The notes under the pieces are model-generated. The model was not told where the DNA came from and ran no database searches. It saw only the letters and a list, made by a program, of their open reading frames with translations. Position numbers and translations under genes: made by a program. A stretch of DNA of 64,000 nt from Deltaproteobacteria bacterium (GTDB lineage: Bacteria; Bdellovibrionota_C; UBA2361; JAFLCA01): the NCBI GenBank assembly GCA_017302875.1, contig JAFLCA010000002.1:1118-65117 (forward strand), read 5' to 3'. Below are positions 23,856-48,866 of this stretch, in pieces (position 1 is the first letter of the stretch; each line of letters begins with the position of its first letter).

Positions 23856-23859
23856 CGAG

Positions 23860-25443
23860 TTACCGCTGAGAAGGAAGTTCAAATAGAATCGAGTGGGAAT
23901 CTTCGAAAAGAGGGAGAGCTTCCCCGGTTTGCTTGATAAAAATCGCAAGAGGATCGTTTGCGGGAAGCAGCAAACGATTCGCCCCACGCTCACTTAAGTA
24001 TGTCATCCAATCACTTCCCACCTTAAGAGCATCATAATAGGCGTTGTAAAAATCGTCGCCAATCATGGTTCCGCGATCATCGATGATTGCCTTCATCGAC
24101 CCCTCACCATACAGCGTAATGAAGCCGCCCCATGCTAGAGGTGCGGCAATCACAATCTGCCCCTCCGACAGAGAAGTTTCCTTTACAACGTCAAGCGCCG
24201 CATAGGGAAACCTATCAAAGCTCGGTCCAAACGGGCCTTCGTATAATAGAAGCTTACGGTTAGCAGTGCAATCGACCAGCAAAAGCAACAAAACCGCACT
24301 CAAGACCGCATATCCATGTAGCGAGCGTTTCTCGCGACTTTCAAGCAGGGAGAGCTTCTCCAAATACCACTCCGCTCTGGGGATGCGAGCGAGCAGCTCA
24401 CTGCTGCCGAGCGTTTGGAACGCATAAACCAAGGGAAGACTGACTACAATTCCGAAATACGGGACACAGCGCAGAACCGACGCGCCAAGGTGTCCAAAAA
24501 CTAGAATTGATAAAATCCCGAACCACCCAATGCGCGCACGCAGCGAAGACTCCAAGAAGAAACCAAGCAGAACCATTGCGATAGAAAATTGGAATAACTG
24601 ACCTTCCAGGCGACGGAAATCTACGGGCGCCCACTCTTCGAAATGGGTAGCTGCGAAATTTCCGAACTGTAGGAAAACCTCCTCGTGCAATCGGTATCCA
24701 TAGGGATTGCATAGGGTGGCAAGCACACAAACGCCGAGCAATAAAAACAGCGCACGGATAGAAACTTCTGTAGACAGCGACTTTCGAAGGCCACTAAAGC
24801 GATCAAGCCACACTCCCACCGGAAGCAAAGCCACAAGGAGTAAGCCTAAGGGGAAGGTCGGGTGAAGGTTTGCCCAGGCCACGAACAATAGCGGCAGAAG
24901 AAAAAACATGCGGCGAAGGGAGGCGGAAGTCTCCTCTCCACTCTGGGTCGACCGATACATCTTTGCGACATAGCCGAACACGAGCACAAAGAAGAAAAAA
25001 CCGAAAACCACCGGTCTCAGGATAAAGTGAACCTGCGCAATTTTAAATGCAACGATGAGTGCCAATGAAGATAGGAGATAACTGCCGCTCACCTGCGTCA
25101 GCGTTCTATAGAGCAGCCCAAGGAAGGTGAACGCAAACACGATCGTAAAGAAGCTATACAAGAGCGGCCACGACCCTAGATTGTACAAGGACCACAGCAG
25201 TACGTCGCTTAACCACTGAGTGGAAATCCAGGGTCGTGCAGTCTCCAAAGCTAAGAAGGGATCGCTAGTTGGAACGCTCGCATGCGAAATGCTCCAGTGT
25301 CCGGCAGCGAGGTGCCATCCCAGCCCGGGATCATCCGCAAACCCAACAAGCTGGACGGCGACAAGACTATGCAAAGCAAGCAGAACCAGGATATCTTGAA
25401 ATCCGACCGGGGACAGAAATTTATTCGGCGCTTGCGTGGTCAT
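23860..25443 (-). CDS. Large polytopic membrane protein with C-terminal periplasmic domain; putative GT-C-type glycosyltransferase
   Basis: About 527 aa from the ATG at 25443 (ORF track 25530). More than 10 hydrophobic helices with an acidic first loop (FADDPGLGWHL). Sits within the array of GT-C-like genes. Confidence 0.45.
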   Translation of the reverse strand: MTTQAPNKFLSPVGFQDILVLLALHSLVAVQLVGFADDPGLGWHLAAGHWSISHASVPTSDPFLALETARPWISTQWLSDVLLWSLYNLGSWPLLYSFFTIVFAFTFLGLLYRTLTQVSGSYLLSSLALIVAFKIAQVHFILRPVVFGFFFFVLVFGYVAKMYRSTQSGEETSASLRRMFFLLPLLFVAWANLHPTFPLGLLLVALLPVGVWLDRFSGLRKSLSTEVSIRALFLLLGVCVLATLCNPYGYRLHEEVFLQFGNFAATHFEEWAPVDFRRLEGQLFQFSIAMVLLGFFLESSLRARIGWFGILSILVFGHLGASVLRCVPYFGIVVSLPLVYAFQTLGSSELLARIPRAEWYLEKLSLLESREKRSLHGYAVLSAVLLLLLVDCTANRKLLLYEGPFGPSFDRFPYAALDVVKETSLSEGQIVIAAPLAWGGFITLYGEGSMKAIIDDRGTMIGDDFYNAYYDALKVGSDWMTYLSERGANRLLLPANDPLAIFIKQTGEALPLFEDSHSILFELPSQR

Positions 25444-25514
25444 GTCAGTGTTGTTCAGGAGAATAACAATATTTTCGCCCACGGGAAGAGTTTTCGACAG
25501 AGCATTTAAACCGC

Positions 25515-27698
25515 ATGGCGCAAGAACCATCAGCCTGTCCGCAGCCCTGCACCATTAAGCAGTTCGCCTTGCTCATAGCTGGGCTTAGTATTCTGGTCGC
25601 TTTTACCCTCGGCGCCGCCTGGATTTGCGCAGAGGATGCCGCAGCCGGTCGCATTTCGCTCAGCGTTTTACAACCCGCCGTCGATTTAATTTCGAGACAC
25701 GGCGAGCCCTGGGTGGCTCAGGCTTCCCTCGTTTTCCCTCGCATCGGGTTCGGGCTTTCCGCTGTGCTCATCCTATTAGCTTTCATTTGTCTCATTCAAC
25801 GCACCTCGCGCGCGGCGACGCTCCCGCTGATCTGCTTAAGTCTTGCAATCAGCATTCAAGTGCCTGCGCTCATGAACGAGCTACAATGGTGCATTCCCCT
25901 ACTCACGCTCCTCGGGATCCTAGTTCTGACGTCGCTTCACTTCACCACAGAGGCGCAGGAAGCATCATCTCAGGATTCACGAAGCGGCATTTTTGAAATT
26001 ACAGTCCTCTCGCTGATCGTTTTTGCAGGCGCCCTCCTGCGTCTCTACGCCCTCAATCAAGTGCCTGATAATTTCGAAGGAGAGCTCACCCCATTTTCAA
26101 TAGGGGCGACCTCAATTCCTGGAATGGTGGCGGCCAATGCCGGTGTTGGCGGACCATGGGCTCCTCTCGGGTTACTCTACTATGTGCCGATTTGGCTGAG
26201 TGCCCATCTTTACGGCACCACTATTGTTTCCTTACGTATTTCGTCCGCAATCGTCGGAATTGTCAGCATTCCTCTGCTTTATATTTTTATGCGCAGCGCA
26301 TTCAACAAGAGCGCGGCGTTGTGGGGCGCATTCTTTTTTGCGATGGATTCACTGCATGTCGGATGGAGTCGCACTGACGTACACCCACATGATGTAACGA
26401 CGTGGCCAACCATACTGCTGTGCCTTTGCACGGTGAAAGCTTTCCAGACGGGGAAAAATCTCTATTTTGCGGCGACTGCGCTGCTGATGGGGTTGACGTG
26501 GCATCAGTACCCCTCCGGACAATCGGCTTTTCTAATTCCCGTGCTTGCGCTCGTCCTTTCTCTATTCGCAGAGCCAAAGATATTTAGTCGACTTAACTGG
26601 CGACTAGGCTGGCTTGCCTTGGGCGTTACCTTGTGGGCAGTTGGACTTCCCGTCAGTTATTACGCGGCGACGGGTGAATGGCACTGGAGCAATCCTTTCA
26701 CACTGACGGGCGAACGCGCGCTCTGGGCGAATCAGCAAAGCAATCTAGAAGTTGCAGTGCAAATCGCTGAAGCGACTCTGCTGCATAGCGCCCAGTACAT
26801 CCAAGGACTATTTTATCGAGCCCCCTTCCTCTTTCACCAGGACATCCTTCCGGTTGTCCCGCCTTTCCATCCAAGAACTTTTCCCTGGATGCTGTCCGCC
26901 TGTCTTATTCCAGCTAGCTTGCTCTTACTCTCACGCCTCAATCGACGCCACGCCGGATATGCTGTGCTGGCAGCTTGGATAGTAATTGCGATTCTTCCCG
27001 GTGCGCTTTCCAAGGAACCATTTCCGAAGAGATCGGCCACATTCTATGTCGCCTTGGATTGCCTGGTTGCCGTCTACGTGGCGTGGATGCTCGCGATTTT
27101 AAAGAGACATGCCAGCAAATTCATTGTCATTCCGGTGCAGGTTGGATTGGCATCTCTGTGCGTCGCATATTTCTGCTTCTGCTCAATTCTTTGGTTTAGC
27201 GAACGTCAATGGAAGTTCGGAACCCCCGGTGAGCAGATTGTCGCAGACAGAGCTGCTCCGTTTATTCATTCCGGCACCGTGGTAATAACAGATCTCTGGG
27301 AAGACTACTCCGAGGGCAAGATCCTGTGGCTGATGCTGGATACCTTAGCCAACCCACACAATCGACCGAACGCTTGGATATTTGCGAGCCCCCCGGATAC
27401 CGAAATGTGGAAGCGCTACGCCTGCTCGCCGCGCAGTGCGGTGGAGAACCTCAACTTCAGCGCCTGGCCATATCGTTGGAGTAAACTGCGGGAGCAGGTC
27501 CCCGAGATTCAAGCCACCACAACCTGGAGCAATTCCGTCTATATTTTCAAGGATCGACGCCGCGAACGCTCGGGAGACCCTCCGCCTGCGCTCGCCGAGC
27601 TAATCGGCTGCTGCCCGCAGGCTGCTGTCACCAAGATCCCGCGCCAAGCATCTCTAACAACAGACTATTATATAGTAGAGTGCCAACGCGCATTTTAG
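25515..27698 (+). CDS. GT39/PMT_2-like (ArnT / protein O-mannosyltransferase-like) membrane glycosyltransferase
   Basis: 727 aa, polytopic. LLRLYALNQVPDNFEGE...SLRISSAIVGIVSIPLLYIFMRSAFNKSAALWGAFFFAMDSLHVGWSR matches the typical PMT_2 N-terminal pattern. Confidence 0.65.
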   Translation: MAQEPSACPQPCTIKQFALLIAGLSILVAFTLGAAWICAEDAAAGRISLSVLQPAVDLISRHGEPWVAQASLVFPRIGFGLSAVLILLAFICLIQRTSRAATLPLICLSLAISIQVPALMNELQWCIPLLTLLGILVLTSLHFTTEAQEASSQDSRSGIFEITVLSLIVFAGALLRLYALNQVPDNFEGELTPFSIGATSIPGMVAANAGVGGPWAPLGLLYYVPIWLSAHLYGTTIVSLRISSAIVGIVSIPLLYIFMRSAFNKSAALWGAFFFAMDSLHVGWSRTDVHPHDVTTWPTILLCLCTVKAFQTGKNLYFAATALLMGLTWHQYPSGQSAFLIPVLALVLSLFAEPKIFSRLNWRLGWLALGVTLWAVGLPVSYYAATGEWHWSNPFTLTGERALWANQQSNLEVAVQIAEATLLHSAQYIQGLFYRAPFLFHQDILPVVPPFHPRTFPWMLSACLIPASLLLLSRLNRRHAGYAVLAAWIVIAILPGALSKEPFPKRSATFYVALDCLVAVYVAWMLAILKRHASKFIVIPVQVGLASLCVAYFCFCSILWFSERQWKFGTPGEQIVADRAAPFIHSGTVVITDLWEDYSEGKILWLMLDTLANPHNRPNAWIFASPPDTEMWKRYACSPRSAVENLNFSAWPYRWSKLREQVPEIQATTTWSNSVYIFKDRRRERSGDPPPALAELIGCCPQAAVTKIPRQASLTTDYYIVECQRAF

Positions 27699-27716
27699 TC
27701 GCTATATCTGAGATAA

Positions 27717-29486
27717 ATGGCCGCAAACACTTCTTATAATCCAACGGCGCGAGGATCGAACCTCGCTCTTGAACTACTCCTCAACCTCCTGTTGGTGGCC
27801 GTGGTGTCGGTGGATCTTATCTCGCCCTGGTCAGTTGAAGTGTCATGGCACGCGAGCTGGATCTGGATCGCAGTTCACATCGTTCTTTTCATCGCCGCGC
27901 TCGGATCACTACTGAAGTCTCTGCTAAGACCCGTAAAATTCCTCTCCGTCATCGGCCTGGGAATCGCGCTGGCATACCTGTACCTCGCGATGGTGGATGC
28001 GAGAAACATCAGCCACGAGGCTACTCAGCAGGTTGCTTGCGTTCTAAAGAAGTGGGCGGTCCCCGATCACGCTTTTGGAGACTGGTGTTTTTTGGGATAT
28101 CCGGCTCGCTCGTACTATCTGAATGCTTTCCCCACCCTACTATTCGGTCCGAGTCAGCTGGCGTTAAATTTTGGCTTCGCGAGCTACTTCATCATTGGCT
28201 TGCTTGCCTTCGTTGGCGGAATCCTCTCGCTTTTTAAGGATAGACGCGCCGACTTGGTTGCTCTGCTCGCCGTGGCTTTACTCCTGCACTCGAATCACTT
28301 CGACGTACTCCTACTAAACTTCGAACAATCTTTCGTGCCGACAAGCTATGCGCTTATGGTGGCGGGATTCTTTCTGCATTTCGTTTCAAGCGGCCGCTCG
28401 CGATATCTAACTTTAACTGCGCTGGCATTGTATTTAAGTATTTATGCATACACGCCGGCTCTGGCTTTAAGCGTTCTCGCTCTAATTCTGTTACCGCTCT
28501 TCCTACTAAGTCCGCTCAGTATAGGGAATCGTCGCCTGGCATCGCTGCTTGGCCTAGGACTCATCGCGGGAATTATTCGCTCACTGTGGGCACGCGAAGA
28601 CTTAAAGCTAAACCCTGAGGGAGGAGTAGGCGAAGCTCTGTGGCACAAACTGGGAGAGCTGGGCTCCGCCCTCACCACGTTCACTCCGCCTGATGGGGTT
28701 ATCTCTCTGGCCTTGGCGGCCGTTCTCGGCGCTTTCACCCTACTTACCTTTGGCATATTTTTGCTGCGCCTCTATCAACTTCTGTCGCGCCGAGGCGCTG
28801 CGTCAAGCGAAGGCACATCGCTACTCATAGCAGATCCAATTTTTGCCGTTTCTGGTCTATATCTCCTGCTCTGTGTATGGGCAGCGGCAGTCGCGATTGC
28901 CTCGATCCTCTCGCCGGGATACGCAAAACCACCTCCTGCCTTTGCCATACATCGAGCCACTTTCGTGCTACCGCTTTTAATCGCCTGCGGCGCAGTCTTC
29001 GAAAGCAAGTGTCGCCGTTTTCTGACTTTGCACTACCTCGCACTCTTGGCTGCTTGCATCTATTTTGGATGGTTGGGCTGCCAGTATCTCGCTCTCCATC
29101 AGTCGCGCAAAGCGGCCGATCCAAAGATTGCCTTCTTCAAAGAACTGCGTCGGCAGTTTCCCCACAAAGAACCCGGAGATTCGATCACCATCCTGATGTC
29201 GGGCAATCTGCGCTGGCTGCTCGGGAATACCTCCGACTATGCAGAATACCTTTGGCCGCAGCTCGAATACTACTTCTATGAAACGTGCCGAGAGTTTGCG
29301 GACTTGCCCCAACGTGCGAAGGCGTCCCTCCTGATCACAGAAGCGCCTTTTCCTGATTGCGCTGCCGAGCTTGGCTGTGAAGTGGAGGCATGCGAGAATT
29401 TCTCTACGTTGCAACACACGCTCCAGGCATGCAAACTCTCAGCCTGTCGCGCTGAAACGACAGATCACCTAGAGCCCGTGAATTAG
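27717..29486 (+). CDS. Polytopic membrane protein, putative GT-C-type glycosyltransferase
   Basis: 589 aa with more than 10 hydrophobic helices and a Cys-containing soluble C-terminal domain. No diagnostic motif recognised; the call rests on context. Confidence 0.4.
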   Translation: MAANTSYNPTARGSNLALELLLNLLLVAVVSVDLISPWSVEVSWHASWIWIAVHIVLFIAALGSLLKSLLRPVKFLSVIGLGIALAYLYLAMVDARNISHEATQQVACVLKKWAVPDHAFGDWCFLGYPARSYYLNAFPTLLFGPSQLALNFGFASYFIIGLLAFVGGILSLFKDRRADLVALLAVALLLHSNHFDVLLLNFEQSFVPTSYALMVAGFFLHFVSSGRSRYLTLTALALYLSIYAYTPALALSVLALILLPLFLLSPLSIGNRRLASLLGLGLIAGIIRSLWAREDLKLNPEGGVGEALWHKLGELGSALTTFTPPDGVISLALAAVLGAFTLLTFGIFLLRLYQLLSRRGAASSEGTSLLIADPIFAVSGLYLLLCVWAAAVAIASILSPGYAKPPPAFAIHRATFVLPLLIACGAVFESKCRRFLTLHYLALLAACIYFGWLGCQYLALHQSRKAADPKIAFFKELRRQFPHKEPGDSITILMSGNLRWLLGNTSDYAEYLWPQLEYYFYETCREFADLPQRAKASLLITEAPFPDCAAELGCEVEACENFSTLQHTLQACKLSACRAETTDHLEPVN

Positions 29487-29498
29487 CATCAGACGCTT

Positions 29499-31142
29499 AT
29501 GCACCGCATCACTCTCCTTCTGTCTCTTCTCAGCCGCGCGCTTCCGGTACTCGCGCTCATTTTTCTGCTTGTCGTCGCTTGGAACCTTTCCGATTTTATC
29601 CCGATTTGGGATGGAGGTTGGTTTTTGGGCTGTGCGATGGATGCCAGCCTCAACCTAGGCGACATCTCCAAGTTCAATTGCGGCGTGCATGAACCTGCGA
29701 TTTTCTATATGGGACTGCTCGCCCTCGTGCACTACGTGAGCGGCGGCAGCTTGTCCGTGCTGCACTTCTTCAACCTTGCCCTTCTCTTCGTGGCGATGTG
29801 GGCGAGCTTCCGATTGTTGCGCAGCCTATTCCCCGCTGAAGAGAATCAACGTGAGTTGGCGCTCGTCGCGGCGATTTCGGGAACCTTCCCCATTCTGGTT
29901 GCAATTGTGTTTAACACCAGCTTGGACTTTTCTGTTGCCGTATTCCTAGTGCTGTATGCGCTGGCTATAGCAAAACGCAGCGTGCTGGGGGCTCTTCTTG
30001 CGGCGTCAGCCTTGGCCTTCTCGAAAGAGACCGGCTTGCTGATGTATGCCTTAAGTCTGCCCTTTGTGGCGCTCTTTGCAACTGAAGGTCCGCTCTTTTC
30101 AAAGCAACGTTTCCGCTCCGCGCTGCGCTACGCACCCCTGCTGCTTCCCGGAATATTTCACTTCGTCTACTTTCTCATGCGCCCCGACGGATACTCGCTG
30201 CAGGGAAAAGTGGCGACTCAATTATGTTGGACTGAAGCAAAGGAGTGGTACCAGCTGTTTCTACAACTAAACTTCAGCAGTAAGACCATTCAAAATTATC
30301 TCTTCAATATCTTCGCCCTCAACTTCAATTGGATTTTGACGGCGATTATCGCGGTAGCTTTGTTCAAAATACTGGCTGCTTTCGCGCGCGCCAAGTTCTC
30401 ACGGGCTTTTTTTGCGGTGCCAACTCAGCAAACGAGAGCACAACTGTTCGTGTTGGCACTATTCATCGTTTCAATTTACGCATCGACGCGCTGCCCCTTT
30501 TACAACAATCCAAAGTACATCGCTCCGTCACTGATGCTTTTGGCAATTGTTTCTTACGGCGCCCTGCTGCGAGTCGTGGCTTCCGCCCCCCTGCGGCAAG
30601 CCTTCCTGAGCGGCTTTTTGATTCTCAATTGCTTTTCTCTCTTTCGAACATTGGATCCAATTTCACGTTCCTACTACGGCACGATTCCCTTCGGGCAGCA
30701 CAGAATTTTACATATGACGAGCCGCACCAACGAGTGCTGCGGATACGGACAGGATCAGCTCGTATACAATCTAGAATTCACCAATTTGCACTATCTAGTC
30801 GGCGAGGCTTTTAAAGAACTCCGCATCAAGGCTTCCGATCCCTTGGTGGTCCCAACCCGAGCTTGGATGTTGCGGTTCTTCGATTCTGAATCTTGGGATC
30901 GTGGCCTGAATCCCAAGAACCCCGTCTCCTACTGGGAATTATCGGCTGACGAGGCCATACACAATGAAGACATCGGCTACGTGTATTATATCGACTACGC
31001 CTTCCACGATACTCGCGAGGACTTGGAGAAACTTCGCGGCTGCTTCCGGCAGGAGTGGCGCAAGGAATTCTTCCGGGATGGATATAGTCTACCTATATAC
31101 CGCTTTGTTCGAACGGGTAGCTGCCCCGCCAAGACACCCTAG
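29499..31142 (+). CDS. Polytopic membrane protein, putative GT-C-type glycosyltransferase
   Basis: 547 aa, polytopic N-terminal two-thirds (...LALVAAISGTFPILVAIVFNTSLDF...AFSKETGLLMY) plus a soluble C-terminal domain. The call rests on context. Confidence 0.45.
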   Translation: MHRITLLLSLLSRALPVLALIFLLVVAWNLSDFIPIWDGGWFLGCAMDASLNLGDISKFNCGVHEPAIFYMGLLALVHYVSGGSLSVLHFFNLALLFVAMWASFRLLRSLFPAEENQRELALVAAISGTFPILVAIVFNTSLDFSVAVFLVLYALAIAKRSVLGALLAASALAFSKETGLLMYALSLPFVALFATEGPLFSKQRFRSALRYAPLLLPGIFHFVYFLMRPDGYSLQGKVATQLCWTEAKEWYQLFLQLNFSSKTIQNYLFNIFALNFNWILTAIIAVALFKILAAFARAKFSRAFFAVPTQQTRAQLFVLALFIVSIYASTRCPFYNNPKYIAPSLMLLAIVSYGALLRVVASAPLRQAFLSGFLILNCFSLFRTLDPISRSYYGTIPFGQHRILHMTSRTNECCGYGQDQLVYNLEFTNLHYLVGEAFKELRIKASDPLVVPTRAWMLRFFDSESWDRGLNPKNPVSYWELSADEAIHNEDIGYVYYIDYAFHDTREDLEKLRGCFRQEWRKEFFRDGYSLPIYRFVRTGSCPAKTP

Positions 31143-31233
31143 GAATCCACCCCCAAGTTTCGATCAGGACATAAAGCAAGCCGCCCGGGGCTCCAGATAG
31201 TTCTTTTTTCCGAGAAAAAGAGTTAATCTTTCC

Positions 31234-34200
31234 GTGCACCTATCAAGACTTCCTGCTACGCTCACAACGATGGAACGATTGCGATTCTTAAGCTTCAGAG
31301 GCCTGTCCCGTTCGACCTACTGCCTGCTTGGCGTCCTACTCCTCGGCATATTCTTTCGTCTGTACGCGATCACGCATGGCGTGACGTTTCACCCAGACGA
31401 GCGACATATCGTCGATGTGACTACCAAGCTGAGTCGTGCGGACATGAACCCGCACTCGTTCGCCTACGGCAGCTTCCCGTTCTACTTCTCATGGGCAGTC
31501 GCCCAATTGCTGGGACTACTTTGGCCGAGCTTGATGCGCTACGACGGAATGTTCATCGTCGGACGTTGCGTGGCAGCCTTCTTCGGGGTCGCTTCAATTC
31601 TGCTGACCTACCTGCTTGCTCAACGCGTCTATGCTTCGCGTTCTGTATCAATCTTGGCAGCTGCCCTTGTTGCGCTGAACGTATTTCACATTCAACTGTC
31701 TCGCTTCTTTGCGGTCGATATTTTTCTGACCGCTTGGTGCATCGCGGCTCTGGTCGCCTGCGTCCGCCTGTCTCAACAAAATCGCGCGCGTGACTATCTG
31801 CTGGCTGGCGTCTCACTTGGATTTGCATTCGCCACGAAGATAAGCGCGATGACCCTTTTGGCGCCGCTTTTTGTCGCCATCGCCCTGCATGGCATCGCTT
31901 CGAATCAGCTCTTTTCCTGGCGGCGCATTGCTTGGACTGTTGCCACCCTGCTTCTAGCCGGCCTTGTTTTCTTGGCCGTCGAGCCCTATGCGGTGCTCGA
32001 CTCGGTAACATTCCTGAAGAACACCAAAGAACAAACCGACATGGTGCAGGGTTTGTGGCGTCCGCCCTATACAATTCAGTACGCCGACACGACCCCGTAC
32101 CTGTACGTACTTTCGCAGATGACCTTCTACACGATGGGCATCCCCTTGGCGCTCGCCGTATTTTTGGGCTTTGGCTACTCCTTCTTTAGACAGTTCTCCA
32201 AGATTCGCCCGGCAGAACTCGTACTGCTGGCCTGGGTCATCCCGCTGTTTCTCTCTTTCGGTGGTCTTCAAGTTAAGTTTCCCCGTTACTTCCTGCCCAT
32301 ATATCCCGTGCTATTCGTCTTCGCAGCACACTTCCTTATCGAAATAGGCAGCGCTCTTGCTCGAACGAGAGTCCGCTTCTTGCGCAACGTTCCGACCGCG
32401 ATCGTCGTGACTTGGTGTTTTGTATATGCCGTGGCGTTTTCGCGAATTTACTCAGTCGATCATGGCTACGAAATTGCCAGTCGCTGGATTTTTCAGAATG
32501 TTCCGGCTGGCTCCACCATTTTGGGCGTGGACTGGGATGATAAATTGCCGCTCTTCCTGCCCGGCCTTGATCCACGCCGCTTTAGAGCAGAAGGGCGCGC
32601 GTGGGAACTCCCCCTCTATGGAAATGAAACCCCTGAAAAGTTAGCCGAAGTTTCCGAAAAGCTCGCACGCGGTGACTATATTATTTTCCCAACCGCACGT
32701 ACCTATGGGTCGATCCCACGAATCCCCGAAGAGTACGTATTCACGACCAACATGCTGCGATTACTGTTTGCCGAAAAGCTCGGGTACAAGCTTGAGCAAA
32801 CTATAAAAATTCGCCCGCACTTCGGCCCGATAGAATTTAATGATGATTTAGCCGATGAAAGCTTGTCGGTCTACGATCATCCAAAAATTTCAATATTCAA
32901 GAAAACCGAGGCCCTCTCAGCGCTCGACATTCGCCAGCGCATTCTCGACGCCTATCAGTATAGGCCCCTTCCTACGCTTCAAGATATGTTGTTGGCTGAT
33001 AGCGGCTCGGGTGAGTTAGCCACGACTACTGTGCGACCGACACTCCTTCCAACCTTCTTGTGGTTGCTGATCTTGGAGCTACTAGGACTCATTGCATTGC
33101 CATTTGCGATGAGTCTATTCCCGACTGCTCCGGACAAGGGTTATGGAATCGCAAAAACGGGCGGCCTTCTCCTCGTAGGGGCCAGCGTGTGGATCCTCGG
33201 TAGTTTGCATTGGATTCCCACGAATGCGCGATGCACCTGGATCATTCTCGGCATGCTGGCCGCAACGGCAATGTTTCTGTTTTCCCGGCAACATCCTTCA
33301 TTGCGGCAAATCCTCAAGCAGAATCACAAGCCGTTTTTAGTTGGCGAACTTCTCTTCCTCGTGGGATTTTTCGGATTTGTTATTTTGCGCGCTTTTCAGC
33401 CAGAGATTTTTTGGGGCGAAAAGCCGATGGACTTTACCTTCCTCAACTACTTCATTCGGCTTGAGAGCCTACCGCCCCAAGATCCCTGGGCCGCAGGGCA
33501 AGTCATGCGCTACTACTATTTCGGATCGTTCTTGATGGCGCTGTTGCATAAGCTGAGCGGTATTGATTCCGCAATCGGCTATAACCTTTCTATCGCAACA
33601 ATCGCCGGACTTTCTTTGTCAGGCGCCTACACCTTTATCCTTATCTGTTGCAGAAAAATTTGGCCCGCGGTGATTGGCGCCTTGGCGGTGCTTCTGATGA
33701 GCAATTTGGAAGTACTACGCTTGGTCTTCTTCAGCGAGAAGAAAGGTTTCGATCTTTTTTGGGCAAGCTCGCGCTTGTACCGCGAGCCCGGCATCACCGA
33801 GTATCCGCTGTGGGCATTACTATTCGCGGACCTCCACGCGCACCTGATTGTCTACCCGCTCATTTTCTTGTTGCTCGCTCTGGCGACCCGTTTCCTTCAT
33901 CACGAGCGGGACTCGCTCACCCTCTCCTTAGTCGCTCATCGCTTCGCCTGCGGCGTAGTTCTGAGCAGCTTGGTCGCCACTAATTCTTGGGATGCAATTT
34001 CTTACGGCTTTCTTTTCGGCGTCCTCATGCTCTACCGCTCCTTGCTTGTGGTGGTTGGTAGACGGGGTCGCTTTAAGCGCTTCTGTTCTGCGCTCCTCGA
34101 TTTGCTTCGTGACATTCCGCTGGTCAGCCTCGGAATACTGCCAATTTTTGTTCTCTTCATGCTGTCGTCCGGATCACAGGTGGCGTTGGGGTTCGGCTTT

Positions 34201-35295
34201 AATCAAAAGATCGAGTTCGACACTCTCGATCAAGTCCTTCGCCACCTGGGACAGTGGTTGCTGCCTATCTTTTTAGCCTTCCTCCTACTCTCCTTTAAGA
34301 ATTTACGGAGAACTCCGATCCGAGAAATCGTAGGAAGGCTACTGCTTGGACTGTTCTTCGGCGCCTTCCCGTTGGGGATTTGTTTTCTTACGCTGCTCCC
34401 CGCGTTCGAAGGCCGCGTACCAGCTCTTCAAGATTTACCGTGGTCCATTCCGGCGCTGTGCTCCGGGATTTCCTTCTTGGCGGTGTTTGTCGGGATGGGC
34501 AAACGCTACTCCCACGCCGTCCGCATGGCTTCCGTGTTCTGCTACTGCGCCATGTTGCTCATTTCGGGTGCCGAGCTGTGTTTCCTGATGGATCACATGA
34601 ACACGATCTTCAAGTTCTACAACGCCGTGTGGATGCTGTGCGGCTTGTCGGTGGCCTGCCTCCTGCCAACCTTGGTGTTGGAGCTATGGAATTTGCGACC
34701 ACGACTGCTTGCCTACACCGTTGGAAGGCCTCTGTGCTTGGCCGTCACGTCTGTATTTGCAATTGCGTGCGCCGGCTCACTGATGAACATGCATACCATG
34801 GTGACTTTCCAACGTGTGGCCGGGCCACGCCCGACGCTCGATGGCATGGCATATCAGCACTGGATGTATCCGCAGGAGGGCGAAGCCATTCGCTGGATTC
34901 GCAAGAATATTCGCGGCACTCCAACCCTTCTTGAAGCGCACGGGGACTCCTATCAGAACTTCACGCGCATAAGCATGAACACTGGTTTGCCAACGGTCTT
35001 GGGCTGGAGCTATCACGTACAGCAGCGTGGCACAGCCGACATTTCCATCGCCGAACGTCGCCGGCTTATAAACGAAATCTACTCGGCGCCCGACCCTGAA
35101 TCCGCAGTGGCGAACCTACAGATGCTGGGAGTCGATCTTATTTACGTCGGACCTCTGGAACGCGAACTTTACGAACGCGGCACGTACAATAGAGCGGGTC
35201 TACGCAAATGGGACGAACACCCAGACGTGTTCCAGCCGCTTTTCCGCTCCGGCACGAGCGTTGTTTACAAAACAACCTGGGCAAGGCTACCGTAG
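31234..35295 (+). CDS. Fusion protein: N-terminal GT39/PMT_2-like glycosyltransferase + C-terminal DUF2298 / 'YYY' membrane domain
   Basis: 1353 aa (GTG at 31234; alternative ATG at 31270). The N-terminus has FRLYAITHGVTFHPDERH...VGRCVAAFFGVASILLTYLLAQRVY...HIQLSRFFAVD. The C-terminal half has GQVMRYYYFG, ITEYPLWALLFADLHAHL and MNTIFKFYNAVW, and is paralogous to the next gene. Confidence 0.7.
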   Translation: MHLSRLPATLTTMERLRFLSFRGLSRSTYCLLGVLLLGIFFRLYAITHGVTFHPDERHIVDVTTKLSRADMNPHSFAYGSFPFYFSWAVAQLLGLLWPSLMRYDGMFIVGRCVAAFFGVASILLTYLLAQRVYASRSVSILAAALVALNVFHIQLSRFFAVDIFLTAWCIAALVACVRLSQQNRARDYLLAGVSLGFAFATKISAMTLLAPLFVAIALHGIASNQLFSWRRIAWTVATLLLAGLVFLAVEPYAVLDSVTFLKNTKEQTDMVQGLWRPPYTIQYADTTPYLYVLSQMTFYTMGIPLALAVFLGFGYSFFRQFSKIRPAELVLLAWVIPLFLSFGGLQVKFPRYFLPIYPVLFVFAAHFLIEIGSALARTRVRFLRNVPTAIVVTWCFVYAVAFSRIYSVDHGYEIASRWIFQNVPAGSTILGVDWDDKLPLFLPGLDPRRFRAEGRAWELPLYGNETPEKLAEVSEKLARGDYIIFPTARTYGSIPRIPEEYVFTTNMLRLLFAEKLGYKLEQTIKIRPHFGPIEFNDDLADESLSVYDHPKISIFKKTEALSALDIRQRILDAYQYRPLPTLQDMLLADSGSGELATTTVRPTLLPTFLWLLILELLGLIALPFAMSLFPTAPDKGYGIAKTGGLLLVGASVWILGSLHWIPTNARCTWIILGMLAATAMFLFSRQHPSLRQILKQNHKPFLVGELLFLVGFFGFVILRAFQPEIFWGEKPMDFTFLNYFIRLESLPPQDPWAAGQVMRYYYFGSFLMALLHKLSGIDSAIGYNLSIATIAGLSLSGAYTFILICCRKIWPAVIGALAVLLMSNLEVLRLVFFSEKKGFDLFWASSRLYREPGITEYPLWALLFADLHAHLIVYPLIFLLLALATRFLHHERDSLTLSLVAHRFACGVVLSSLVATNSWDAISYGFLFGVLMLYRSLLVVVGRRGRFKRFCSALLDLLRDIPLVSLGILPIFVLFMLSSGSQVALGFGFNQKIEFDTLDQVLRHLGQWLLPIFLAFLLLSFKNLRRTPIREIVGRLLLGLFFGAFPLGICFLTLLPAFEGRVPALQDLPWSIPALCSGISFLAVFVGMGKRYSHAVRMASVFCYCAMLLISGAELCFLMDHMNTIFKFYNAVWMLCGLSVACLLPTLVLELWNLRPRLLAYTVGRPLCLAVTSVFAIACAGSLMNMHTMVTFQRVAGPRPTLDGMAYQHWMYPQEGEAIRWIRKNIRGTPTLLEAHGDSYQNFTRISMNTGLPTVLGWSYHVQQRGTADISIAERRRLINEIYSAPDPESAVANLQMLGVDLIYVGPLERELYERGTYNRAGLRKWDEHPDVFQPLFRSGTSVVYKTTWARLP

Positions 35296-35301
35296 AAGGC
35301 A

Positions 35302-37350
35302 ATGGAAATTTGCCTGACTGTCGCTCTCATCGCTCTCGCACTTTGCGCCGTAGGAATAGCTCCTTTTGAAGGAACGCTTGCCCTTCTATTGCTGACTCCT
35401 ATTTGCGCCTACCCTTTGGGTCTGCTTTTACCGGCGGGGAAACCACTCTACGTTATCTCCTTCGCCTTCCTTCTGACCTTGTTGATGGTTCTTAGCAAAG
35501 GCCGCTCGCTATATAGCCGCGATGAAGCCCTACAAGCACTTCTTCCCGTCGGCTATTTTGTAGTTTGCTTCTCAGTTTTTTCCTATCTCTGCCACTCGTG
35601 GCCGGACTTCTATCAACTAGGCGAACGTCTGCGTGATTTTGCCGTGCTGAGCGCGGTTATCAAATCTCCAATTGAAGCGCGTGAACCCTGGCTTTCGGGG
35701 TTTCCGCTAAATTACTACCTATATTGGTATCGCTTTGGGCATATGCTCAGCAGCGTGCTGAAGCTTCCAATCTGGGAAGTCTATCATCAGCTGCAAGCCT
35801 TCACCTTCGCGCTCTTTAGCACCTCGATTTTCGTGCTCTTTAGAAAGTATGCGAAGTTTCCAGTCTGGGGGGCGCTATTCACCGCCGCGATTATTACGCT
35901 TGGCTCAAACGCCGAGGGAATTTTGTACTTTATCAAGAACGACCCCAATTGGTGGGGGCCGTCACGAGTCATTCCGGGCGCAATCAACGAGTTCCCGGCT
36001 TGGTCGTTCCTTCTGGGCGACGTACACCCACACTATTTAAATCTGGGGCTAATTCCTTTTCTCTTGGGTATTTTCCTGTGCGTCTCACGCTCCACGCTGC
36101 AAATCGGCGCAAAATTATACTCTATTGTGGGCATACTGGCAGTTGGCACGTTGTGGTCGTACAACGCGAACGCTTGGGAACTTCCCGTATGGCTGGGTTT
36201 AAGCGCCGCGATCTTTACGAGCTCGCTTGCCGTTCTGCCTGTCGCTGAACTCAGAAAGATAGAGCGCCGAGACTTCCTGTCACTCCCGGCAGCTCTTATT
36301 GTCGCGCTCGTTGTCTACCTTGCTTACTCGCTGGCCCTTTCCTCTCTCAACATCGTTCCGGCGCACATGCCGTTAAAACTCGTCGAGATGCCGGTACCTC
36401 GTACCAGCGCCTTAGATTTGCTGCGACATTGGGGAATCCCGCTGGCAATCATCATTTTGAGCAGCATTCTTTCTTTACGAAAAATCGAATGGATGGTGAT
36501 TGCCGCGCTGGCATTTGGATTAGCTTTCGCCACTCGCAGCGCCATCGTTGTTCTGACTCTTACCTTCGTACTTGCCGCGTTGATAGCTTGGAATTCTCGC
36601 AAGGAGCCCGGCAGCGCAAGCTTAAGCAACTGCGTCTTCACGTCGATGGGGCTCCTCGCGCTCTTGCTCATTATATTTCCCGAATTGGCGTTCCTCGACG
36701 ACTCCTACGGCGGAGAAAACGAGCGAATGAACACCATTTTCAAAGCCTATAGCGCAGCTTGGTTTCTGCTGCACGGCTTTGCATTTTATTTGCTGGCGAA
36801 ATTGCCGAGAGCTTGGCTCAATCGCTTCCCGGACTTTCCGTTATTGCCCTTGGTGTTGGTGGTAGGAATTTTATGGATTGGATTTTTCTTCCGCACTATC
36901 AAACTCAGAAAGTCGAGCGAATTTGGCGTACAGCCTGCGGCACAAGGTCTTAGCGACATTGAAAGACGCTTCCCAGGTTCTGCAACCACGATACAGATTC
37001 TCACGAGAAGCCGTCCGGGAATTGTGCTGGAAGCGCAGGGCCCCGCCTATGACTTCACCTCACACATCGCGACTCTTTCGAGCCAGACTGCATACCTAGG
37101 CTGGGCAAACCACATCAATTTGCTTTTACAGGTATACCCGGAAGTTTCTCGCCGCGAGAAAATTACAGAAGATATGTACCGTGAAGCTGATTGCGCCAAG
37201 AAAAAGACTCTGGCGACTCAGGAACGCATCAACTACATAGTGCTGGGCCCGCTTGAAAAGCGCGCCTTCCCAGAAGCAAATGCAGAGCAATTTTCCTGCT
37301 TCAAGGAACTGATCAGGTCTAAAGAGTATCTGGTCTTCGAGAACCAATAG
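35302..37350 (+). CDS. DUF2298 / 'YYY'-domain polytopic membrane protein
   Basis: 682 aa. GFPLNYYLYWYRFGH, INEFPAWSFLLGDVHPHY, MNTIFKAYSAAW and YLGWANH align with the C-terminal half of 31234-35295. Confidence 0.65.
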   Translation: MEICLTVALIALALCAVGIAPFEGTLALLLLTPICAYPLGLLLPAGKPLYVISFAFLLTLLMVLSKGRSLYSRDEALQALLPVGYFVVCFSVFSYLCHSWPDFYQLGERLRDFAVLSAVIKSPIEAREPWLSGFPLNYYLYWYRFGHMLSSVLKLPIWEVYHQLQAFTFALFSTSIFVLFRKYAKFPVWGALFTAAIITLGSNAEGILYFIKNDPNWWGPSRVIPGAINEFPAWSFLLGDVHPHYLNLGLIPFLLGIFLCVSRSTLQIGAKLYSIVGILAVGTLWSYNANAWELPVWLGLSAAIFTSSLAVLPVAELRKIERRDFLSLPAALIVALVVYLAYSLALSSLNIVPAHMPLKLVEMPVPRTSALDLLRHWGIPLAIIILSSILSLRKIEWMVIAALAFGLAFATRSAIVVLTLTFVLAALIAWNSRKEPGSASLSNCVFTSMGLLALLLIIFPELAFLDDSYGGENERMNTIFKAYSAAWFLLHGFAFYLLAKLPRAWLNRFPDFPLLPLVLVVGILWIGFFFRTIKLRKSSEFGVQPAAQGLSDIERRFPGSATTIQILTRSRPGIVLEAQGPAYDFTSHIATLSSQTAYLGWANHINLLLQVYPEVSRREKITEDMYREADCAKKKTLATQERINYIVLGPLEKRAFPEANAEQFSCFKELIRSKEYLVFENQ

Positions 37351-37380
37351 TCCGCTAACGTTCCCGCATACGCGAAGAAC

Positions 37381-39366
37381 TTACTGCGGCTTCTGCGCCT
37401 CAGGATTTGCGTTCGCCTTGGGATTCACGAGGAACCATGCGTACGAATATCCGACCGGGCTCCACGGAGTATGATTCAAGGAATAGCCAAGAAATCGCTT
37501 CAGGGTCATCAGTCGCAAATCTGGAACCCACCAACCTCGTAAATTAATGCGCTGCGCGCGGAACTGCTCAGGCGCTGGCGGTTCATTGTCTTTCCAGTCA
37601 CGAATAATGTAGTCGAACTTCGCATACTCTTCGGCAGGAGCCTGGAATTTGTATTGCGGGATATCTCGCATATACCATGTCATTGGCCAGGTTGATTCTC
37701 CCATCACCAGGAGCTGAGGTTTGTACCCTTTTGTCTCCGTGGCAATCTCTTCCTTGATGGTGTTGGCGATGCCGTGAATTTCTTGAGTGGTATGAACCTG
37801 GCTTATGTACTCACGTGCTTCACCGGCATAGACATAGTTCGTCAAAATGGCCGCACGGGTCGTATAGATACAGAACAGCGCCAGCAAGAACCACTTCAAG
37901 TTCACGGTTCCGAGCATTCCAGCCGCGCGAAAGCTCATCCCCAACACGATCAGAAAAACTCCGCTCGCCACCCAGAAGAGATTCTCAGGGCTGCCTTCAT
38001 CAGCTGTGAAAAGAACGCCCAAGACAAGGACAATGATGCCCGTGCTGCGAATCAGTCGGGCCACCGAAAAATGCTGCCAATCGCTCACAGGAAAACGGCG
38101 GAAATAATCATCAAAATAGAGCGCTAGGTAGATCAAACCTGCAATGAAGGGGTACGTGGTCAGCCACGGAACCTTCTCCCCGAGATAACTGTACGTGCAA
38201 AAGTTTGCTAAGAACAAATAGCCAAAAAAGGCTAAGCGTCGATTGCGTTCAAGCAGGTGCACGACCGTCGTTAACACCGCCTGCGGCACTAAAATTAAAA
38301 AGCCGCACACGTCGTAGGCGTCCTTGAGCTTCAACAATCCGAGATACTTGTAGTCAGCGATCGTCTTGTCACTGAGGTATAGAGAAACGACCAAAGCCAT
38401 GACGAAAATAACAACGCCGCATACCTGCACCCAGCGCGCAGCGCTTCGGTAGAATGTCCAAAGGTACAAGCCAAAGGCGACAATGAAGGCCAATTCGTAC
38501 CAGGACAGCATATAGAAATGAAAAAGCCAGGGCCCGGTAATGCGATCGATATTGTGCTGATGCATCCAGTAGCCCAGGCTCTCGCGGTACAAACCGTCCA
38601 AGATACCCTGCATGTAACGGAATCCTGCACTGTAAAGATAGCAGTAAATGAAAACTCCCAAGCAGACAGCATTTAGCACCGCAAATGAGTGCGTCTTTAT
38701 GTGTCGAGCCATCTGCGCAAAGAGTGGGTTCTTATCTCCAAGCGCCTGAGCAGCGAAGCAATATTCAAACACCAAATAGCCGAACAAGATCGCGACCGTC
38801 ACATAGGCATTCTCTTTAATGCAGAACTGTAAGGTCAGTGCGACAAAAAAGATCAGCGCCTTACGACCGGGAGCGGCCAAGGTCGCGCCGTACAGCATTG
38901 CGACCATGCAGGCGATGATAAGCGTGTCCTCGCGTAAGAATCGGGACCAGTAAATTAGGGTCGGAGACAAAGCAACAGCCGCCGTAAGTGCCAATACTGC
39001 AAATCGCGAAAAGTAGTGCCGAAACAGGAAAGGAACAAAGATCAGACAAGAGCCAACGAAGTTAATCGGAACTCGCGAAGCCCAGTCTCCCTGACCAAGC
39101 GTGTTGTACACGATGCGATACAAATTATAGAGAAAGGGCCCGTGGAGGAGCGCTTGATAGCGATAGTAGTTCTGATCCGGGAAATCAAAAAAATATTTCC
39201 CATACATGCCATGCAAGGACTCATCGTGATGAAAGGGACGCATGTCCAGGGCGAACCAGCGCAGCAGCAAGCCCCCGGCAATCAGAAGGACAAACACGCC
39301 CCATTCCAGTGGGGAGAAGAAATCACGCGCACGCGACTCAGGGGGAGCGGTCTGCTCTAGACTCAT
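37381..39366 (-). CDS. TIGR03663-like / GT39-like polytopic membrane glycosyltransferase
   Basis: 661 aa. LLLRWFALDMRPFHHDESLHGMYGKYFF...LLHGPFLY...ALSPTLIYWSRFLRED pattern. Confidence 0.6.
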   Translation of the reverse strand: MSLEQTAPPESRARDFFSPLEWGVFVLLIAGGLLLRWFALDMRPFHHDESLHGMYGKYFFDFPDQNYYRYQALLHGPFLYNLYRIVYNTLGQGDWASRVPINFVGSCLIFVPFLFRHYFSRFAVLALTAAVALSPTLIYWSRFLREDTLIIACMVAMLYGATLAAPGRKALIFFVALTLQFCIKENAYVTVAILFGYLVFEYCFAAQALGDKNPLFAQMARHIKTHSFAVLNAVCLGVFIYCYLYSAGFRYMQGILDGLYRESLGYWMHQHNIDRITGPWLFHFYMLSWYELAFIVAFGLYLWTFYRSAARWVQVCGVVIFVMALVVSLYLSDKTIADYKYLGLLKLKDAYDVCGFLILVPQAVLTTVVHLLERNRRLAFFGYLFLANFCTYSYLGEKVPWLTTYPFIAGLIYLALYFDDYFRRFPVSDWQHFSVARLIRSTGIIVLVLGVLFTADEGSPENLFWVASGVFLIVLGMSFRAAGMLGTVNLKWFLLALFCIYTTRAAILTNYVYAGEAREYISQVHTTQEIHGIANTIKEEIATETKGYKPQLLVMGESTWPMTWYMRDIPQYKFQAPAEEYAKFDYIIRDWKDNEPPAPEQFRAQRINLRGWWVPDLRLMTLKRFLGYSLNHTPWSPVGYSYAWFLVNPKANANPEAQKPQ

Positions 39367-41566: not shown

Positions 41567-41812
41567 GAGGTACCTGGAATTTAAGGAACTGTATTAACAG
41601 CGGTTTTTTCTAAAGCTAGCCGGTTTAGGCAGTAACTTCAATAAGTTAAATAACTTAGTCGTCAGCTTTTAGATGCGGCTAAACGACAAACTCCAGACTC
41701 AAATTAACGCAATAATATTAGTGGGTTAAAGATTATTTGAAGCATTGTTATATTTCCTGCTGATAGATAAGTGGGGGACAGGGTGTGAAGTGTGCAATCG
41801 CGAGAGATTCGT

Positions 41813-42358: not shown

Positions 42359-42502
42359 TTGAACGCTAAGATACTCCATTGAGGAAAGGCGACACGCGCA
42401 ATAGAATCAATGGATTAAGCGGCCCGCGATCTTTTTAAGCCCTTTTTGATAGAACTGTGTCGTACGCTGGTGCGGCGCTTTGGACTTTAAACAAGTCGGT
42501 AC

Positions 42503-43900: not shown

Positions 43901-43958
43901 GTTGATGCAGACTTTTGACCTGCCTCACATTGCGAATAGTCTCTAAGAGGTTTTAGCT

Positions 43959-46184: not shown

Positions 46185-46414
46185 ATCGGGCGTTCCCTAG
46201 CGTGCGTTTACGCATCAAAACCTCTTACCGAGGGAGCTGAACGGCTCTGCGCAGGGTGAAAATCTACGAGTTTTTCCTAGTATGGCTACGATGTACTTGG
46301 ATTTCTCGCCAGTTACCGCACTTCACCTGAAGCAAAAGTAAACTACCCCCTCTAAAGAGCCGATAGGTGACATAGGAGCTTCATGCTGGGGCTTCTTAAA
46401 CATATTGTGAAATC

Positions 46415-47230: not shown

Positions 47231-47339
47231 AACCTAAGGGCTTGGCCGCACTGACATTTACCGGGGTGATAGGGGCGTGCTAAGGTAAGTATTCTGTATA
47301 AGAATGCGTGCTGATTAAAAGACTTACCCTGGGGAAAGT

Positions 47340-48818: not shown

Positions 48819-48866
48819 TGCGCAAATTGCTTGGCATAGGATAGGATTTTTATAGTAAGAATTTTT

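Follow-up and report, generated by a model that had tools for sequence, protein, structure and literature searches.

A long array of predicted GT-C glycosyltransferase genes beside a eukaryote-type UDP-galactopyranose mutase in a Bdellovibrionota-like bacterium

Organization of the locus

We studied a run of membrane-protein genes in a 64,000-nucleotide stretch of DNA (hereafter the window) from the Deltaproteobacteria bacterium assembly GCA_017302875.1 (contig JAFLCA010000002.1, positions 1,118 to 65,117). An earlier note on this DNA had described seven consecutive large polytopic proteins at 23860-39366, and the corresponding open reading frames (ORFs), here named P1 to P7, lay exactly there, each product presenting 8 to 27 hydrophobic segments of 19 residues (Table 1). 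P2 to P6 were on the same strand, with gaps of 18, 12, 91 and 6 bp in the ORF list. Beyond P7 are the genes of a UDP-galactopyranose mutase (UGM) and of a family 2 glycosyltransferase (GT2b), which fall outside the coordinates of that note and are the most informative neighbours of the array. The host was taken to be a diderm with a TonB receptor and Skp/OmpH; both are present, and its closest named relatives are metagenome-assembled genomes (MAGs) of Bdellovibrionota/Oligoflexia. Comparison with 80 DUF2298-bearing loci from other species, with flanks of up to 10 kb on either side, showed that the run of seven large polytopic ORFs is the longest: runs elsewhere comprised 1 to 5 genes and never 6 or more, and the window reaches seven because P2-P4 are inserted. 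The array is thus real and unusually long, and combines a core that is conserved with a slot that varies.

Table 1 Positions in the window of the genes and gene segments discussed
Feature	Coordinates	Strand	Size	Description
P1	23860-25530	-	556 aa	Counted from the first ATG
P1, orthologue start	23860-25443	-	527 aa	Counted from the Met at the orthologue start; polytopic, predicted GT-C fold, no Pfam/NCBIfam family; first-loop motif FADDPG
P2	25515-27698	+	727 aa	
P3	27717-29486	+	589 aa	
P4	29499-31142	+	547 aa	
P5	31234-35295	+	1353 aa	1341 aa by database gene call
P5 N-terminal half	31234-33030	+		PMT/ArnT-like GT-C module with HPDERH loop, then conserved soluble linker domain
P5 C-terminal half	33031-35295	+		DUF2298/TIGR03662 "YYY"; second predicted GT-C module and C-terminal globular domain
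P6	35302-37350	+	682 aa	Stand-alone DUF2298 paralogue, conserved partner gene of P5, starting 6 bp after it
P7	37381-39366	-	661 aa	
UGM	39415-40776	-		Eukaryote-type UDP-galactopyranose mutase (phmmer against PDB)
GT2b	40790-41566	-	258 aa	Soluble GT2, DPMS/GtrB/ArnC-like; first gene of operon
VKOR-DsbA fusion	22548-23813	-		VKOR, Thioredoxin_4 and DSBA domains; periplasmic disulfide oxidoreductase
SDR	18202-18996	-		Pfam adh_short; best NCBIfam match mycolate-reductase-like, below cut-off
GT2a	18997-20106	-	369 aa	Pfam Glycos_transf_2
TadE-like region	41792-51113	+		Four TadE-like genes, one TadG-like pseudopilin gene and a 748-aa ORF without Pfam match
Possible second glycan locus	3370-8204	+		Includes the two genes below, a 3-hydroxyisobutyrate-dehydrogenase-like and a type I phosphodiesterase-like gene
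MOP/Wzx-like	3370-5061	+		12 transmembrane segments; weak MatE match
Soluble GT2	6021-7031	+		

In each of the seven proteins an acidic motif occupies the loop that holds the catalytic Asp/Glu of GT-C enzymes, and these motifs were invariant wherever a family alignment was made. The motifs that had been quoted before were all found: HPDERH at residue 53 and RYYYFG at residue 759 of P5, HHDESLHG at residue 46 and LHGPF at residue 74 of P7, and in P6 a degenerate YYY form, NYYLYWYRFG, at residue 137. Searches with hidden Markov models (HMMs) gave PMT_2 matches (PF13231, gathering cut-off 26.1 bits) for P2 (38.8 bits) and P5 (43.9 bits), whereas P1, P3, P4 and P7 had none even at E<=10; P1, P3 and P4 had no match at that limit to any Pfam or NCBIfam model. 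None of the seven matched the STT3 Pfam model at E<=0.01, and the best score with the ArnT equivalog NF009784 was 19.1 bits (P5 N-terminal half) against a cut-off of 567 bits, which places them outside both families. A sequence-profile search of PDB hit only the N-terminal module of P5 (the P1 and P7 families had no matches, and the P4 family a single insignificant non-GT-C match, E 1.7), and for that reason the GT-C folds were taken from structure prediction.

Considering HMMs, AlphaFold2 (AF2) models compared with Foldseek, and hhalign together, it is very probable that P1 to P7 are all GT-C proteins, in line with the extra GT-C paralogues suggested before; since P5 is a double enzyme, the array would comprise about eight GT-C modules in seven genes. 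Recent paralogy was considered and rejected: only the C-terminal half of P5 and P6 were significantly similar (23% identity over 673 residues, E 7e-15), the N-terminal half of P5 and P7 being marginally so (E 6e-4). A promoter scan was uninformative, with 10 promoter-like sites versus 12.9 in shuffled sequences, and so was a terminator scan.

The UGM and GT2b genes

In a phmmer search against PDB, the UGM product aligned at full length with the Trypanosoma cruzi enzyme 4dsg (458 bits, E 3e-136, residues 4-449 on 11-458) and with the Aspergillus fumigatus UGM (452 bits), and it matched no bacterial Glf structure at E<=1e-3. This ORF, for which Pfam and NCBIfam gave only the labels Amino_oxidase and PRK07208 "hypothetical", is accordingly assigned as a eukaryote-type (trypanosome/fungal) UGM on sequence; polyprenol reductase and CrtI-like or DprE1-like oxidase had been considered and were dropped on the 458-bit match. 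The protein is 78% identical in a relative (L005), and at least 588 relatives were seen on prokaryote-like metagenomic contigs. The eukaryote-type enzyme seems to be widely under-annotated in bacteria; a literature search for it in bacteria returned nothing relevant, a tunicate paper treating the bacterial-type enzyme.

The adjoining GT2b carries the sequence DSDDQ at residues 100-104, an instance of the DxDxQ motif, which has been put forward (PMC10821137) as diagnostic of GT2 enzymes that attach sugar to polyisoprenyl phosphate, and matches ArnC structures at E 2e-11. These features classify it as a putative GT2 of the polyprenyl-phosphate glycosyltransferase type. GT2b, UGM and P7 are on one strand with gaps of 13 bp (GT2b-UGM) and 48 bp (UGM-P7), forming an operon-like unit of which P7 is the predicted last gene. 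The trio is kept in two relatives (L005 and L006), and trios with a P7-like gene were found in two metagenomic loci (L108 and L109).

The association of the two enzymes extends beyond the close relatives. A GT2b-like gene lay directly upstream of UGM, on the same strand, in 30 of the 59 independent metagenomic UGM loci with enough upstream DNA, and DxDxQ was present in 34/34 GT2b-like proteins beside metagenomic UGMs. The genes next to the pair encoded P7-like proteins (L108, L109), PMT_2 proteins (L104, L114), a GT87 protein (L137) and, at seven to eight loci, a translationally coupled protein of 505-520 aa that hhalign related to GT-C proteins (93.9%, E 1.5e-7). Coupling of GT2b-UGM to this GT-C protein, with an invariant EPLERD loop, was seen in L137, L141, L142, L146, L152, L157 and L164, and the loci of this independent EPLERD lineage had two or three more polytopic proteins after it (GT87; TPR with a weak TMEM260-like match). 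These loci appear to be another multi-GT-C array around the same donor module. A relationship between the A6-type GT-C found beside UGM and the P7 family was tried and discarded (probability 1.1%); therefore the UGM-adjacent GT-C proteins do not belong to one single family.

P7, a TIGR03663/Agl23-family protein

P7 scored 219.3 bits with TIGR03663, well over the cut-off of 126.25, and covered profile positions 3-431 of 435. Six residues (D47, E48, H74, G75, R97 and R144) were invariant among 16 aligned relatives; the N-terminal DE, the HGP tripeptide and two Arg are what we take, from the TIGRFAMs description, to be the hallmark invariants of that family. Its family profile aligned with the PMT-like module with 97.2% probability (E 4e-11) and an intact HHDE. 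P7 is thus classified as a TIGR03663/Agl23-family protein, itself apparently a PMT-like GT-C relative, with orthologues in L005 (65% identity), L006 and L007. TIGR03662 and TIGR03663 had been presented as families with no assigned function. This held for TIGR03662, for which we found no function paper, but TIGR03663 is now named "flippase activity-associated protein Agl23" in NCBIfam, and a paper (PMC11182771) describes Haloarcula hispanica Agl23 as a putative hexose-phosphate-dolichol flippase that translocated a lipid-linked oligosaccharide in proteoliposomes and rescued a yeast rft1 deletion. The role of P7 is ambiguous: the family name is associated with a flippase, yet the GT-C motifs are retained.

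The DUF2298 proteins P5 and P6, and P1

P5 joins two predicted GT-C modules. It scored 43.9 bits with PMT_2 (see above), 41.4 bits with PMT, 254.1 bits with DUF2298 (PF10060, cut-off 27.8) and 439.2 bits with TIGR03662, above the cut-off of 300.25. P6 exceeded the DUF2298 cut-off (173.5 bits) but remained at 205.7 bits with TIGR03662, under 300. The families named in the earlier note were consequently recovered for P5 and P6 (DUF2298), P5 (TIGR03662), P7 (TIGR03663), and P2 and P5 (PMT_2); P6 is better described as a DUF2298 member that is apparently divergent as TIGR03662. The N-terminal module is the part of the P5-family profile that matched PDB chains of Pmt1/2/4, ArnT and ALG9 (E 3e-4 to 1e-2).

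Y161-Y163 was invariant across 47 DUF2298 family members; YYYxG is presumably the hallmark motif of TIGR03662 (TIGRFAMs description). The remaining family invariants are the E in EKPMDF, the E in EYPLW, the D/H/H in FADLHAH, a W-D, and the N/F/K in MNTIFKF, with several further invariant residues in the C-terminal domain, and P6 retains most of them (GERLRDF, GDVHPH, MNTIFKAY). Such an acidic/His set is of the cluster type that would be expected at a metal-dependent GT-C site.

The DUF2298 half of P5, modelled with AF2 from 46 family members, gave a pLDDT of 93.8 and a pTM of 0.94. Ranks 1-14 of the Foldseek search against PDB were all GT-C proteins, namely DPY19 (E 2e-7), AftA (TMt 0.46-0.52), STT3, AglB, PglB and then ALG3, with ArnT and Pmt enzymes after them, and the C-terminal globular domain matched that of AglB (3vu0, TMt 0.51). 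DUF2298 is therefore modelled as a GT-C glycosyltransferase fold resembling STT3/AglB, DPY19 and AftA. Searching the literature for the function or fold of DUF2298/TIGR03662 gave incidental mentions only, and for "YYY domain" matches that concern the unrelated Y_Y_Y domain. Many of the homologues that are PMT_2+DUF2298 fusions (1550-1970 aa; P0025, P0044-P0076) contain beta-propeller inserts of NHL/SGL type, which would point to a domain for substrate binding outside the cytoplasm in some lineages.

P1 also has a predicted GT-C fold despite belonging to no Pfam or NCBIfam family: none of its 206 homologues had a Pfam domain. Its AF2 model (pLDDT 94.0, pTM 0.93) matched STT3 8age best (E 1e-8, TMq 0.55), followed by DPY19, AglB, ALG12 and ArnT, ranks 1-20 being all GT-C; the top 12-17 Foldseek matches of the DUF2298 and P1 models were all GT-C with probability 1.00. 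A comparison of the P1 profile with the P5 family, in which only the C-terminal domains matched (2.9% probability), was not used. Orthologues of P1 occurred in four of five relatives (L002, L003, L005 and L006).

The variable slot P2-P4 and the related loci

Five relatives, with P5 identities of 73, 58, 57, 49 and 38% (the named ones are Oligoflexia/Bdellovibrionota MAGs), share a common backbone: RpiA-SDR-GT2a-PEPCK-...-VKOR/DsbA-[P1]-[slot]-P5-P6-...-P7-UGM-GT2b-TadE-like genes. P1, P5, P6, P7 and both flanks were syntenic in four to five of them at 38-73% identity, and a P6 orthologue directly followed P5 in L001 and L003-L007. Only P2, P3 and P4 are strain-specific, without orthologues in the relatives compared.

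P2, the first gene of the slot, is assigned as a PMT_2-type GT-C on its score (see above), and its one trace in the relatives was a 70-residue local match to a slot gene of L003. P3 belongs to a family of 326 representatives, and its profile aligned over 341 collinear columns with the PMT-like module of the P5 family at 54% probability (E 1.3e-4); comparison with the P7 and P4 family profiles gave 16-17% probability, also collinear, with the motif SxETTQE placed on HHDE. A PMT_2 match appeared in 1/46 P3-family members, at 2e-3. P4, whose family numbers 12 proteins among the 5.8 billion searched (the closest, from a Gemmatimonadota MAG, is 30% identical), aligned with the PMT-like module over 290 columns (95.1% probability, E 3e-8) and is thus a predicted divergent GT-C of a rare family, in which the conserved cysteines C45 and C61 suggest periplasmic disulfides. 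In L003, the relative with 73% P5 identity, the slot contains genes for two PMT_2 proteins, another polytopic protein, a GDSL-like protein and a GT2, and in L005 and L001 the P1-P5 slot is empty. Slot content differing in this way between relatives would vary the glycan product.

On a larger scale, DUF2298 was encoded in more than 550 stretches from the species-level genomes scanned, mostly of Chloroflexota, with some Thermoanaerobaculia/Acidobacteriota, Bdellovibrionota, candidate Moduliflexus, FCPU426 and methanogens. The presence of TIGR03662 and TIGR03663 together, thought unusual in the earlier note, turned out to be the rule: the order fusion, stand-alone DUF2298, TIGR03663-like gene recurs in Chloroflexota, Acidobacteriota and Bdellovibrionota, and 28/80 DUF2298 loci had a P7-like gene within 10 kb. 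Their occurrence in a diderm is a minority pattern, as had been supposed, but extends to the Thermoanaerobaculia/Acidobacteriota, Bdellovibrionota and candidate Moduliflexus. A horizontal origin, also raised there, found no support except possibly for P2-P4, as P1, P5, P6 and P7 are syntenic and recent transfer was rejected on composition: P1-P7 had GC contents of 0.51-0.54, third-position GC (GC3) of 0.555-0.631 and relative synonymous codon usage (RSCU) distances of 0.20-0.33, within the range of the housekeeping genes of the window (RSCU distance 0.26-0.38).

Several flanking genes deserve mention. The VKOR-DsbA gene is a conserved immediate neighbour of P1/P5, adjoining the GT-C core directly both here and in L001, L002, L003, L005 and L006, and may have a functional tie to it; its listed ORF (22548-23993) overlaps the end of P1, and the alignment of orthologues places the start probably about 60 codons inside. 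The SDR and GT2a pair, next to PEPCK, also occurs in L002 and L006 and, with 64-66% identity and conserved synteny, in L001 and L005; it might contribute to the pathway by modifying a sugar or lipid. The TadE-like genes are divergent from GT2b, and the adjacency is kept in L005 (21027-22784) and L006 (18533-22161); their products are possible glycosylation targets. The locus at 3370-8204 could supply a flippase or an acceptor glycan.

Proposed pathway and alternatives

We propose that this is a locus for lipid-phosphate-sugar-dependent glycosylation in the periplasm, with a probability of about 0.6. UGM, as identified by sequence, would turn UDP-galactopyranose into UDP-galactofuranose, and the soluble GT2b would load the sugar onto polyprenyl phosphate at the cytoplasmic face to give polyprenyl-phospho-galactofuranose; we infer this second step from the subfamily to which the enzyme belongs, its DxDxQ motif and the conservation of the GT2b-UGM pair. 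The lipid-linked sugar would reach the periplasmic face through P7, as a member of the Agl23 family, or through another flippase. GT-C enzymes, with active sites that presumably face the periplasm, would then move it, and possibly other polyprenyl-phosphate sugars, onto periplasmic acceptors. They would include P7 itself, the conserved P1, the double enzyme P5 with its partner P6, and the strain-specific P2-P4, and multiple modules may serve different linkages or acceptors, as Aft/Emb enzymes do from one polyprenyl-phosphate furanose donor. A scheme of three components (polyprenyl-phosphate glycosyltransferase, flippase and GT-C) is established for periplasmic glycan modification (PMC11127046).

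Taken by parts, polyprenyl-phosphate-sugar-dependent periplasmic glycosylation is quite probable, and galactofuranose (Galf) as the donor sugar has a little better than an even chance. Known GT2 polyprenyl-phosphate transferases and GT-C enzymes invert configuration, and therefore an alpha-Galf product is predicted. As acceptor we favour a protein or a self-built polymer over lipopolysaccharide (LPS) or peptidoglycan, because the best folds are protein-modifying and the triad of fusion, stand-alone DUF2298 and TIGR03663-like genes is found in archaea as well as in monoderms and diderms. By analogy, the match to AftA and the row of GT-C genes bring mycobacterial arabinan assembly to mind.

A number of observations weigh against this proposal. 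Our literature search found no precedent for polyprenyl-phospho-Galf or any lipid-linked Galf donor, and UDP-Galf could instead feed an ordinary cytoplasmic transferase. The best NCBIfam matches of GT2b were ArnC, AglJ, PpgS and a dolichyl-phosphate-hexose transferase, all under their cut-offs (52 bits versus 529 for ArnC, 19 versus 375 for the hexose transferase), and a sequence scan showed no membrane anchor in GT2b. The window had no free-standing ORF of 80-220 aa with at least three hydrophobic segments that might be a small flippase of GtrA type, for which P7 or the MOP-like protein could substitute. UGM was absent from the Chloroflexota, Acidobacteriota and methanogen DUF2298 loci examined, one methanogen locus having a P7-like gene; therefore Galf is not the universal donor of DUF2298 enzymes, and the UGM-GT2b module seems to have been added to an older core at the level of the clade. 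The housekeeping genes PEPCK and RpiA are just as syntenic in the relatives, and since the synteny covers the whole region, being adjacent says little about whether the outer genes share a pathway; the Tad genes are in this respect a lead only. Finally P3, probably a divergent GT-C, is the weakest of the seven calls.

Among the alternatives, the strongest concerns P7, which may be a GT-C enzyme using the GT2b/UGM product directly and not a flippase, translocation being left to another protein or occurring unassisted. The 97% hhalign match to the PMT-like GT-C module, the intact HHDE with its six family invariants, and the occupation of the position after UGM by unrelated GT-C proteins in other GT2b-UGM loci argue for it. 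The rft1 rescue and oligosaccharide translocation described for H. hispanica Agl23 (PMC11182771) speak for a flippase, as does the score of P7 above the curated TIGR03663 cut-off; the two roles may be compatible, and we put the chance of a transferase that is not a flippase somewhat below even.

A second alternative, which we hold only tentatively, is that the DUF2298 proteins (the C-terminal half of P5, P6), and perhaps P1, glycosylate secreted or envelope proteins, for example TadE-like pseudopilins, and do not build polysaccharide. It would agree with the best structural matches (DPY19, STT3, AglB and PglB, and the AglB-like C-terminal domain of DUF2298), with the PMT-like N-terminal module of P5, with the NHL/beta-propeller inserts of many family members, and with the TadE-like genes adjoining GT2b in the window, L005 and L006; the distribution of the triad among archaea, monoderm Chloroflexota and diderms would likewise point to a shared class of acceptor such as proteins. 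However, AftA, an arabinosyltransferase that builds glycan, matches DUF2298 equally well or better by TM-score, there was no STT3 HMM match, the invariant W-D of DUF2298 lies mid-membrane and not at the position of the oligosaccharyltransferase WWDYG, and with housekeeping genes equally syntenic the Tad adjacency may be incidental.

It is unlikely that no single pathway exists, the site from VKOR-DsbA to UGM being a hot-spot that gathers unrelated envelope GT-C genes while UGM supplies a cytoplasmic Galf transferase of the conventional sort. Close relatives do indeed have wholly different genes in the P1-P5 slot, the nearest relatives of P4 are 30% identical proteins from Gemmatimonadota, the seven proteins are not recent paralogues, and the window contains further glycan genes (the MOP/Wzx-like gene and the soluble GT2 of the locus at 3370-8204). 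Against a hot-spot, P2-P6 all run in one direction and are separated by 6-91 bp, the core genes are found together in different phyla, it is specifically beside GT-C genes that the GT2b-UGM pair recurs, and GT2b has the motif of the polyprenyl-monophosphate type.

That the proteins are ordinary ArnT-like enzymes modifying lipid A or the LPS core, an outcome that the earlier note had allowed for, is very improbable: a diderm host with TonB receptor and Skp, the PMT_2 domains and ArnC as the best named match of GT2b would fit, but scores are far too low (19 bits versus 567 for ArnT, 52 versus 529 for ArnC), the locus has no Arn pathway genes, the associated nucleotide-sugar enzyme is UGM and not an enzyme for 4-amino-4-deoxy-arabinose (Ara4N), and archaea and Chloroflexota, which are not known to make LPS, carry these DUF2298/TIGR03663 genes too.

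Comparison with known systems

The proposed periplasmic glycosylation locus resembles the three-component systems (GtrA/GtrB/GtrC and the pentofuranose systems; Kelly et al. 2024, PMC11127046) in having a DxDxQ GT2 beside a GT-C, a sugar-activating enzyme encoded with them and, as proposed here, a lipid monophosphate donor outside the cytoplasm. The GT-C component is represented by P7, in the same operon as GT2b, and by six more adjacent genes for predicted GT-C proteins. The locus differs in that an Agl23-family protein stands where the GtrA-type flippase would be, the predicted sugar is a hexofuranose (Galf), and the GT-C modules number about eight where those systems have one, with uncharacterised families (DUF2298, TIGR03663, P1, P3 and P4) among them.

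The mycobacterial AftA-EmbC-EmbA-EmbB array is similar in that genes for large GT-C enzymes, each with a periplasmic domain at the C-terminus, follow one another. It uses a single polyprenyl-phosphate furanose donor (decaprenyl-phosphate-arabinofuranose), and presumably the donor is shared here too; the structures that match DUF2298 best include AftA, and the pair formed by the C-terminal half of P5 and P6 parallels EmbA/EmbB. However, no membership in those families was found at the sequence level, the host is diderm and Bdellovibrionota-like, and the donor there comes from phosphoribosyl pyrophosphate through DPR and epimerisation by DprE1/E2, in contrast to UGM and GT2 here.

A third parallel is the Agl22/Agl23 pair of H. 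hispanica, since P7 is over the TIGR03663 cut-off and has a gene for a DPMS-like GT2 in its operon, much as the Agl22 synthase is paired with Agl23 in the paper cited above (PMC11182771). Here the host is bacterial, the lipid presumably polyprenol and not dolichol, and UGM lies between the two genes; GT2b is weak to the haloarchaeal dolichyl-phosphate-hexose transferase model, and P7, with its GT-C motifs intact, may be a transferase. As to the GT-C class A enzymes (STT3/AglB/PglB and DPY19), the predicted folds of DUF2298 and P1 share their multi-helix core and acidic loop residues, and DUF2298 shares an AglB-like C-terminal globular domain as well, but identities were about 10-14% with TM-scores of 0.33-0.57 and no STT3 or DPY19 HMM match. 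DUF2298 has no WWDYG-type motif at the equivalent position and instead its own set (EKPMDF, YYY, FADLHAH, MNTIFKF).

Implications

In its most speculative form, which we consider possible but doubtful, the proposal is that polyprenyl-phospho-galactofuranose is an undescribed bacterial lipid-linked hexofuranose donor, made by a DPMS-type GT2 and a eukaryote-type UGM and used outside the membrane by TIGR03663/Agl23-like, DUF2298, P1-type and A6-type families. In this bacterium it would feed a multi-GT-C line building a Galf-containing envelope polymer or glycoprotein, with P5/P6 as a heteromeric transferase. The recurrent GT2(DxDxQ)-UGM-GT-C module predicts such a new lipid-linked donor and an extracytoplasmic route of galactofuranosylation. 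Mammals lack Galf, and it is already recognised as a target for antimicrobials, which gives new Galf pathways a practical interest.

For the families involved, the predicted GT-C fold of DUF2298, with its PMT-like module and Agl23-like companion, would open an orphan family to biochemistry, and the result raises the question whether Agl23-family proteins are flippases, transferases or both. The most valuable features, the eukaryote-type UGM and the DPMS-type GT2, lie partly beyond 23860-39366 and give these orphan families a testable hypothesis. For the organism, which belongs to an uncultured lineage related to predatory bacteria, a hypervariable GT-C slot joined to a conserved glycosylation core probably generates diversity among the surface glycans.

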